NCBI GenBank assembly: GCA_951406725.2
Contig: OX597815.1
Coordinates: 79,298,001 to 79,362,000, forward strand
DNA: 64,000 bases
Direction of reading: 5' to 3'
Origin: Octopus vulgaris
Lineage: Eukaryota
The notes below the pieces were generated by a model, which was given only the letters and a program-made list of their open reading frames with translations, was not told the origin of the DNA and did no database searches. Shown in pieces: positions 49,701-52,700 of the stretch. Made by a program: the position numbers and the translations under genes. Each line of letters begins with the position of its first letter. The first letter of the stretch is position 1.

Positions 49701-52700
49701 GAACCAAGCATCTTTTAAATTTTTCTTCTCTGTTTTCTTTTATTGACTTTTTAATTCTATATACTTATATATATATATACATACATACATACATATATAC
49801 ATACATACACACACACACAGGATTAATATAGTTTCTATGTACCAAATTCACAAATATGGTATTGGTCAGTGCTCCGGATAATAGATGACACTACTTGCCC
49901 AAGGTACTACACAGTGGGACTGAACCTGAAGTCATGTGGTTATGAAGTGAACTTTTTAACCACATAGCCAGTGCTCGTGTATTTAGTGCAAGCTGGCAGA
50001 AACAGAGTGTTGGTCAAAAAAGCCTTGGTATTTAATTCCAGCTTGGTTACATCCTTTTCTATTCATTTAGTTTTGATTGATAAGATAAATACTAGACAGA
50101 GTAATGGGTTTCTATAACCAGATTAACTCCTTAAAATGCTGCATTCTAATGAGTTTAACTAGTAAAATAAGAGAAAAATGTAGTTACAGTCTGCATGCTG
50201 ATGGCTGAACCAGTGGTTATCTGTGATGTTAATGTCCCAGAAGGATTCATTGGGGAAGCAAGGTTGGGAGCTTGCATTGGAGGTATGTTGCCTCCACTGG
50301 CAGGATTAGAAACTGGGGCAGTAAATACATCATATAAATCAGCAGATGGTGTGGTGCTTGCAGCAACTGGTTGGACTGAAGAAGAATTTTGAGAAGCAGC
50401 AGTGTTCATCTTGGAAAAGTCAGCAAAGTTACTTTGTGAACTGAAATTTAAAGATTAAAAAAAAGGAAAACAGAATTAGACCATATGGAAAAACAGAAAA
50501 CAGCCAGGCATAACACACATAAACATGCAAAAGAAAAGTCTCAGCAGAAATTCTTATGTTGCTCTAAACTTTGGACTTCTCTAATAAATTCTAAGGAATT
50601 GAAGCTGTCCAGCTTCAGAATGGCTCATTCCTCAAGTTGAACTGCAATGCACATATACCTCATATACCTGTAACAGTGGATAACTGAAGGACAAGCAAAC
50701 ATAGTGATGCACATTACCCCTTTAGCATTAAAACAAGCCATATCCAGCCCAAATATCTAACTGTTTTATGTTCAAATTGGCTAGATCCAGCCTCTTACAC
50801 CTATCCTACAATGTCATTTTAAAAATAAACATTCACATCATCGAAATTTTGAAGTTATAAGAAAATGCATGATTAATTCAAAGTAACGTGAATATATAAG
50901 ATTTACATTTGACAGAGTAATCTGAATGCTTGCCCACTGCTATAATGTCAACCAGCCATTAAAAAAACATCTCAAATAATTATTAGTTAATATTTATATT
51001 TTTTCATCCCTTCACTGGTTGCTGTCATTGGGTTGCAATCATGCTAGAGGTTCATCTAAAGCAGTGGTTCCCAACCCTTTCCCTACCAAGGACCCCCTTT
51101 TATTTAAATGTGTTTTCTCACAGACCTCTTTTAATATGCTTATCCTTAAGTATATATATATATATATATATATATATATATAAAATATTAGGGAATAAAT
51201 CCAAACTTACAGGGAAAAATCAGATTTAGGATTGAATCCAATTTTATAGTAAAATATTATATTATATTAAATTAGAGATAAAACCACTATTAGGCAAATC
51301 AAACAATGAAAAACTTAAGCCAATACATAAAATTAATTAATTTATATTATTTTAAATATATATCAAAATTATTAAAAGTTTAATAAAAGATAATGAGTAA
51401 AACACTACGATCGTTTCATGGCTGTCCAATTCGTAATAATCATAACTCGAATTATTACGAATTGGACAGCCATGAAACGATCGTAGTGTTTTACTCATTA
51501 TCTTTTATTAAACTTTTAATAATTTTGATATATATTTAAAATAATATAAATTAATTAATTTTATGTATTGGCTTAAGTTTTTCATTGTTTGATTTGCCTA
51601 ATAGTGGTTTTATCTCTAATTTAATATAATATATATATATATATATATATATATATGAAATTTTGAATTTAGTTCCTGGAGCCCCAGTACTACCTTTGTA
51701 GACCATCAGGGGTCCATGGACCACAGGTTGGGAACCACTGTTCTAAAGAATAGACAATTAATCAAGCTCAATAATATTTTTTCACTCACAGAATGACCAA
51801 GTTGACTTCAAAAAGATTTGGACTGAAAACATAAATGGATGTAAAAATATAACCCAACTGATTCGGTCTTTTGTTAACCACAGACTATACAGAATATAAA
51901 TGCTAGAACGATGATAAATTTCATTATTCTTAGTAAACAATGCTCTTTTTAGCTATTTATTTGTTAAGAGTTATTTTTGTTTCCAAACCCTAAAATAGGT
52001 AACCCAGTCAGTTACCTATGAAAGAAAATATTTTCAAAATTGATTTTGTAATTTCGACGAGGGCCTGATGAGAAACTCTTCAATTTGGAATTTGAAAGGA
52101 ACAGGAAGAAATCTTGGGATGTATATATCTTCTGAGATTGGTAACATTAAAACAAATTTGAAATATTCAAGGGAGGTAATTCCTTTAAGTAGTCCAAATA
52201 GTTTCATGTTTGTAACATAAGAATAATTTACTCAACATTTCCTGTATCAATTTACCCATGTAGACAATGTTGCTATTTTGGGCGTTTCTTATGAGCTATA
52301 AAAAGTAAATAAATACATAAACAGTTTAAACCACTAATCACTGAACTTAAAGTATGACACATAATTTACCATAGTAATCTATTAGTTTCAGAAATTATTA
52401 AAATATGGTTTGTTGTTATAGAAGATAACCATTTTACACTATATATTTTGGGTAATATCCCTACAGCTATCATTCTTTCTCCCAAGATGCTGAAGTTTGT
52501 CGTAACATAGCATACCAACATAAACTACTCTGTGCTAACTTCTAAAAATCCTTAGGTTATTCTCATGATTTATTAAACTTAAAGTCAAGAGTTTCAGTAT
52601 CAAAGAACAAGAAGCAGTCTCAAGCTGGTTAGTATCAAGAATTAACAAATTGTGGTTGATGCGTATATTCAGCTACTTAAGCTAATGAGTAAACATCCAT

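Follow-up and report, generated by a model that had tools for sequence, protein, structure and literature searches.

According to PMC8557442, an adjacent, inverted and 5'-truncated copy, a tail of 30–40 bp on one side only and a bias toward (TA)n are standard features of Penelope elements. The same source reports insertion in (TA)n for nearly every Hydra family and hammerheads for all of them, and it describes the Naiads as targeting (TA)n but without canonical hammerheads. Hammerheads on opposite strands, 100–700 bp apart, were reported in 2014 (PMC4209133); Penelope hammerheads have a helix II of 7–8 bp in that description, with a small palindromic helix III in several animals. Palindromes at Penelope inverted junctions were interpreted in 2013 as the result of self-priming (PMC3846280). 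In the only in vitro Penelope system (PMC11167929), both target strands are nicked and extended, two start sites of the reverse transcriptase (RT) define the tail, and the Penelope protein is predicted to be a dimer. For L1, annealing of independently primed cDNA ends has been inferred (PMC11702581), and retrozymes have been proposed to be derivatives of Penelope pLTRs (bioRxiv 10.64898/2026.07.22.740005). The available sections of PMC8557442, PMC11167929 and PMC3846280 call the origin of the Penelope inverted ends and one-sided tails unresolved.

The locus described here is a perfect palindrome in a window of 64 kb (the whole stretch of DNA that was analysed). It resembles the EN+ Penelope units, as far as these are described in the available sections of PMC3846280 and PMC8557442, in its head-to-head, inverted and 5'-truncated ends that point outward to (TA)n, in an extension at one end only, in a type I hammerhead near the 3' end and in a high degree of 5' truncation. 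In contrast to those units, there is no ORF between the ends, the one-sided extension of 74 nt lies outside the published range of 30–40 bp, and the palindrome junction lies inside the hammerhead, with the core removed from both arms. The Hydra and Neptune clades (PMC8557442) share with the locus the combination of (TA)n flanks and a hammerhead of the canonical type, but these clades are defined by protein motifs, which are unreadable in a palindrome without protein. The palindrome is a recent stub, and its family, although new, belongs to a kind that is already known.

The palindrome and its host element

The palindrome is confirmed in the assembly, and its existence in the organism is presumed from the assembled sequence. 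Self-comparison of this sequence yielded two arms of 183 nt each (51258–51440 and 51451–51633), which are 100% complementary and separated by a 10-nt spacer (51441–51450), in agreement with the 183-bp arms without mismatch and the 10-nt loop described in the earlier note. Within the 64 kb, 51258–51633 is the sole long exact palindrome; the runner-up, located in a (TA)n run, has an exact arm of 27 nt, and shuffles of 51183–51628 (n = 100) gave exact arms of no more than 11 nt. The divergence between the arms is below 1.6% (95% bound). A perfect palindrome of this kind (183 bp, 80% AT) is likely to be a fragile site.

The insertion as a whole measures approximately 450 nt and not 376 bp, the size given to it previously, because 51184–51257 belongs to the same element, as is evident from contigs of other copies. 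As had been noted before, it sits in (TA)n inside a MITE. The TIRs of this MITE are 15 nt long (51062–51076 and 51726–51740). The octamers flanking this MITE (51054–51061 and 51741–51748) agree at 7 of 8 positions. The label hAT is assumed on the basis of the 8-nt TSD and the CAG start. The features of the locus are the following (coordinates, strand, description):

51062–51740, no strand: host hAT-like MITE, which measures 174 nt once insert and TA runs are subtracted
51151–51182, no strand: left (TA)n run, putative target
51184–51257, minus strand: 74-nt 3' extension ("tail"), present on the left arm only and ending in (TA)n; it had gone unnoticed in the earlier note
51258–51440, minus strand: left arm, an inverted, 5'-truncated copy of the 3' region of the element, 100% mirror of 51451–51633; within it, 51418–51436 is the reverse complement of 51455–51473, and 51437–51440 is common to the native right copy
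51403–51424, minus strand: mirror copy of the hammerhead 3' half
51437–51454, no strand: inversion junction, a 4-nt microhomology TAAT (51437–51440) / ATTA (51451–51454) around the 10-nt spacer
51437–51633, plus strand: right copy, which reads in the native sense and has no tail; its 5' truncation at 51437 falls within hammerhead stem II, and it ends in (TA)n
51467–51488, plus strand: 3' half of a type I hammerhead, from the sequence, with partner strands from other copies
51467–51473, plus strand: 3' strand of stem II, paired by eye
51474–51485, plus strand: GAAA, palindromic helix III and GUA, with cleavage predicted after 51485
51486–51488, plus strand: 3' strand of stem I (GTG), which pairs with CAC of copies in run X1
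51629–51656, no strand: right (TA)n run, putative target, its first 5 nt overlapping the arm end

A family with two 3' ends

Contigs from four public runs (X1, X5, X8 and X13, from four studies; contigs only) were aligned to 51183–51510 (328 nt). As 3097, 3358, 359 and 66 contigs fit this stretch in the four runs, the repeat that carries the half hammerhead is an abundant family with many variants. At least half of 28 sampled words were found in 20 of the 24 runs listed (10 studies), and the four aligned runs belong to this set. None of the runs listed is on record as RNA, although X13 may be. In the following, counts of loose ends are from the 24 of 250 rows listed, and individual pieces are from the 32 of 6910 listed.

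The tail is continuous with the arm in other copies, with contigs running from one into the other in X1 (pieces 51183–51261 and 51203–51287) and X5 (piece 51200–51294). Loose ends of the TA type were found at an outer position, 51184–51185 (26 contigs in X1 and 1 in X13 among the rows listed), and at an inner position, 51254–51266 (11 + 31 contigs in X1, 20 in X5, 1 in X8 and 1 + 2 in X13, again among the rows listed). The tail-less end at 51258, which is the mirror of 51633, is represented by 31 X1 and 20 X5 contigs in the same set. The family has two (TA)n-abutting 3' termini, 74 nt apart, of which the outer one terminates the left arm and the inner one the right arm; the element ends are 148 and 222 nt from the predicted hammerhead cleavage site. 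That several runs show loose ends of the TA type at both termini is consistent with insertion in (TA)n as known for Hydra and Neptune. Both 3' ends lie in AT-rich sequence, and simple annealing to a (TA)n primer could account for them; the predicted RNA fold of the tail is no better than that of shuffles (z −0.14).

Summed depth, which does not represent copy number, drops from the 3' end toward the hammerhead in 4 of 4 runs, and contigs exit the element into unrelated sequence at 51234, 51244 and 51397 (1, 2 and 2 contigs among the rows listed). A family member that consists of the tail only is located at 23868–23914 (83% identity), beside a short TA run, and (TA)n context is seen both there and at the palindrome. 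The scattered inner exits, the two TA-abutting 3' ends and the tail-only copy indicate retroelement polarity, with integration proceeding from the 3' end and truncation on the 5' side.

No ORF for an RT or GIY-YIG was seen in the palindromic stub, which is without a long ORF, and membership in Penelope, which is likely, is accordingly based on anatomy only. Pfam gave no match at the curated cut-off for six open frames, including a 22-aa frame in the tail. This short frame may bear a faint resemblance to a Penelope N-terminal motif. An exact 21-nt pattern had 0 matches in metagenome contigs.

The element shares a non-coding, low-GC character and a type I hammerhead with a weak palindromic helix III with the non-LTR retrozymes (available sections of PMC7229834; bioRxiv 10.64898/2026.07.22.740005). 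Together with the lack of an ORF in the stub, this would fit a non-LTR retrozyme or a fold-back DNA element without Penelope-type insertion chemistry, a reading that we consider very improbable. Unlike retrozymes, whose type I hammerheads sit in tandem monomers of about 300 nt, the listed copies show no tandem monomers and end in (TA)n-type sequence, not in a next monomer (24 of 250 rows listed; contigs drop rare forms), and a tail is present; the two alternative 3' ends and the scattered 5' truncation points likewise argue against a retrozyme. As for a fold-back DNA element, other copies continue into the hammerhead core and have a one-sided polarity. A MITE with the arms as its TIRs is excluded, since the mirror is the exception and not the normal form in the family. 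The retrozyme reading partly merges with the Penelope-type insertion that we favor below, as retrozymes have themselves been proposed to derive from Penelope pLTRs.

A contig crossing the palindrome junction was not found among the 32 of 6910 pieces listed for the four runs, and none of the 24 runs listed holds all 28 sampled words of the locus (top share 0.86). The joint tables of the four runs contain no strand-changing joint and X8 has no cover at 51425–51435, where it should be considered that contigs show presence and not absence. The lack of a listed contig across the junction, the incomplete word shares and the fact that inverted Penelope structures are known to trouble assemblies (PMC8557442) would be compatible with an assembly or library fold-back artefact, or with a perfection that stems from polishing. 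We nevertheless regard such an artefact as highly improbable, because each end coincides with a terminus of the family: on the right the mirror breaks off exactly at one of them, and on the left the element breaks off at the other. In addition, a chimeric read would have mirrored the flanking DNA too, whereas the flanks here are the two halves of a single MITE with matching TIRs. Moreover, the arms carry minority alleles and not the family-majority ones. Compared to the run contigs, minority alleles at 51331, 51369 and 51394 are common to both arms, which therefore derive from a single template or source locus, or became homogenised afterwards.

The hammerhead and its native stem II

A motif scan of the locus showed that the CUGANGA core 5' of stem II is absent on both arms and that a mirror copy takes its place, as stated in the earlier note. 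The prediction made there that other copies would carry CTGANGA together with a stem I strand was also borne out by contigs from three runs. Core-bearing loose ends make up 3 of the 24 rows listed and come from 3 of the 4 runs. Among these rows, the core is found 7 nt upstream of 51437 in X5 (7 contigs) and 7 nt upstream of 51443 in X1 (4 contigs), and on the mirror side, at 51433, in X13 (1 contig, 6 of 7 core letters shown). The loose ends in X1 and X5 finish with CTGAAGA and then a 7-nt strand, W-TGACTG, that pairs with 51467–51473 at 5 or 6 of 7 positions (by eye). The X1 core has CAC before it, which is complementary to the GTG that follows the cleavage site (51486–51488). The core and the partner strands of stems I and II, a hammerhead feature of the EN+ Penelope units, are present in 3 of 4 runs, with the pairing done by eye. 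Because other copies carry the CTGAAGA core and a stem I strand, the type I hammerhead of the family is, judged by its sequence, genuine, with cleavage being predicted. At the gathering score, Rfam returned no hammerhead model for this motif or for the one at 14.3 kb described below, and its sole match was U6. The stub itself is predicted to be inert, as the catalytic core is missing.

The position of the core differs from the one predicted, immediately 5' of 51418, and no loose ends at 51418 or 51473 are present among the 24 of 250 rows listed. Instead, the native sequence begins at 51437, since pieces from X5, X8 and X13 start there: X8 piece 32 fits 51437–51496 with 1 difference and no gap and has 130 other letters upstream, and the same start is found in X13 piece 16 and in the loose end of 7 X5 contigs. 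Native stem II is approximately 7 bp long, in a region of 44 nt (approximately 51430–51473) with an axis at about 51451.5, i.e., 6 nt away from the palindrome axis at 51445.5.

The hairpin of 56 nt at 51418–51473, which had been taken for the native stem II, owes 19 of its 23 bp to the inversion. Its left 19 nt (51418–51436) are the mirror of 51455–51473 and replace a different native sequence, the core and strand. The RNA fold of the hairpin is strong only through the inversion (z −11.1), and that of the native part, 51437–51495, is no better than shuffles (z −0.82). The position of the core, the offset of the axis and the mirrored left 19 nt thus contradict the identification of this hairpin with native stem II.

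The likeness that had been pointed out between the motif at 51474–51485 and a hammerhead at 14.3 kb (14369–14380) holds for the motif, with 11 of 12 positions identical, but not for the flanks, which are unrelated (7 of 19 and 8 of 25). As BLAST between the two elements also gave no match, they belong to different families. The 14.3-kb hammerhead consists of stem I (14299–14302/14381–14384), a core at 14303–14309 and a long stem II, with an RNA fold of z −2.57. It is part of another (TA)n-flanked element (14021–14499), which has a complete type I hammerhead, undetected by Rfam, and is without an inverted partner. Neither of the two 12-nt hammerhead motifs occurs in the supplement of PMC8557442 (0 occurrences). 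Elsewhere in the window, CTGATGA is directly followed by GAAAC at 52054–52078, with no stem II in between, and does not form a convincing hammerhead.

The inversion junction and the proposed priming of the insertion

Of 153 positions in the arm, 42 offer a microhomology of at least 4 nt with a spacer of 3–20 nt; for the ribozyme part alone, the figure is 8 of 53. In DNA folds of the cDNA end, the terminal 4 nt are unpaired in all three, with no predicted stability. Since 4-nt matches are this common and the bases at the cDNA end are unpaired, the junction needs no ribozyme helix and no special structure. The truncation point is the base that immediately follows the native 5' strand of stem II, within the 44-nt region, which leaves room for a structural pause in stem II (n = 1 junction).

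The earlier note had placed the inversion centre at the ribozyme and had the cDNA fold back and prime itself on native stem II. The first part is correct insofar as the junction lies inside the stem II region; the helix of stem II, on the other hand, was not the primer. Both this model and a weaker form of it, in which stem II of the RNA stalls the RT and the pairing is by chance microhomology, derive support from the position of the truncation point and from the hammerhead, which is real, but are improbable overall. The strong form predicts a spacer of 30 nt and an axis at about 51451.5, where 10 nt and 51445.5 are observed, and the 23-bp hairpin on which priming would have taken place is not native. 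Axis, spacer length and the making of the hairpin by inversion contradict it. The weaker form draws on one junction (n = 1). In the open-licence literature we found no proposal of priming on stem II, and one may still exist in print.

The sense of the spacer is informative with regard to the number of cDNAs. Contigs of other copies show that 51441–51450 is native in the sense of the right, tail-less copy. A single tail-bearing cDNA, started from the left break, might have ended at 51437, snapped back on the 4 nt of the microhomology and served as its own template. The endonuclease or repair would then have linked the copy, at the tail boundary, with the right (TA)n, and the spacer would have been inverted later through recombination between the arms or mis-oriented in assembly. 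By construction, this would explain the perfect identity of the arms and their common minority alleles; self-priming is also how such junctions have been interpreted in print (PMC3846280), and resolution by the endonuclease has been named as the source of the tail (PMC8557442). However, a left, tailed cDNA folding back would give a reverse-complemented spacer on the plus strand, whereas the assembly has a native-sense spacer joined to the tail-less arm (as in X8 piece 32). Because the native spacer belongs to the tail-less arm, the fold-back of one cDNA would yield the layout only with a later flip of the spacer, at the cost of one extra event, and a self-copy of the right cDNA cannot contain the tail, because its template lacks it. 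In addition, a 4-nt hairpin is not predicted in the cDNA, the terminal bases being unpaired in 3 of 3 folds. We consider a single self-copied cDNA unlikely, but it stays alive because recombination or short-read assembly may flip the spacer. The link to the inverted ends of Penelope elements that the earlier note had drawn is consistent with the structure, but the single fold-back by which it was explained leaves the left-only tail unaccounted for, and self-priming had already been proposed in 2013 (PMC3846280).

The explanation that we favor, with a probability of roughly 0.6, is that the palindrome consists of two 5'-truncated 3' ends, placed head to head, and was left behind by one insertion of the Penelope type, with reverse transcription primed at both ends of the target. 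One cDNA would start from the left break at the outer end, including the tail, and a second from the right break at the inner end, without it. The right cDNA would stop at 51437 and its last 4 nt would pair with the end of the left cDNA; alternatively, these 4 nt may first pair with the right cDNA itself, with the snap-back product then annealing to the left cDNA, which would give the same, indistinguishable result. Fill-in would then yield a perfect palindrome, provided that a single RNA or source locus had recently given rise to both cDNAs. The argument for two primers hinges on the orientation of the 10-nt spacer, which short-read assembly may set arbitrarily and recombination between the arms may flip.

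Priming at both target ends has parallels in two of the described systems. In PAc (Poseidon of Anolis carolinensis; PMC11167929), two RT starts downstream of the hammerhead likewise give tailed and tail-less ends, the target is AT-rich and both target strands are nicked and extended, as we infer for the palindrome. It differs in that no inverted insertions are among the products reconstituted in the available part of that report, and in the positions of the ends, which at the palindrome are 148 and 222 nt from the predicted cleavage site and 74 nt apart. L1 twin priming (PMC11702581) resembles the arrangement proposed here in that both target ends are primed and that the inversion junction is closed by a short microhomology. 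There, the two pieces barely overlap, because the second primer starts internally; at our locus both pieces copy the same 3' region, and the product is therefore a palindrome.

A more speculative extension, which we consider doubtful, is that the hammerhead sets the ends of the cDNAs, through a stall at stem II or run-off at the cleavage site, with two RT starts and primers on opposite strands, so that junctions would cluster at the ribozyme. A hint in this direction is the junction itself, which lies on the base immediately following the stem II 5' strand. If true, the inverted Penelope ends would be a product of dual priming. Whether the spacer goes with the tailed or with the tail-less arm provides a rule that separates self-priming from dual priming, and the abundant family could supply junctions that can be counted. 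The arrangement as such has been described before, and what the palindrome contributes is a junction that can be read cleanly; one locus cannot settle the mechanism.

A second hint may be an X1 contig of depth 9.25 in which 51402 is joined to 51372 through 4 intervening letters. If this joint is read on the plus strand, its left piece would stop at the position that mirrors the first base past the cleavage site, as in run-off of a cDNA from cleaved RNA.

An older unit with inverted ends, terminating in (TA)n, is present at 49003–49129/49656–49782 (86% over 127 nt, 93% over 104 nt masked). A GAAAC-palindrome-GTA motif lies at 49574, outside the inverted arm of this unit, and no core motif was found with it. 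The unit is possibly a second Penelope-type stub, with an inversion point away from the ribozyme.

Several other features were observed in the window. A decayed fold-back element (26564–26886), with 73% between its halves, lies beside a (TA)n(GA)n run, and a common short repeat is present in two head-to-head copies at 58783–59209 (187 nt, 85%, 53-nt gap). The U6 snRNA match (33293–33394, 71.5 bits) has several changes and is likely a pseudogene; it is followed at 33455–33494 by a piece that resembles the right end of the host MITE. At 56390–57347, a tandem duplication is suggested by open frames that are identical and spaced by 487 nt. The minus strand of 59600–61100 likely contains exons of a host gene, without a Pfam match at the cut-off; one stretch presumably resembles clathrin interactor 1. 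The palindrome may be located in an intron of this gene.
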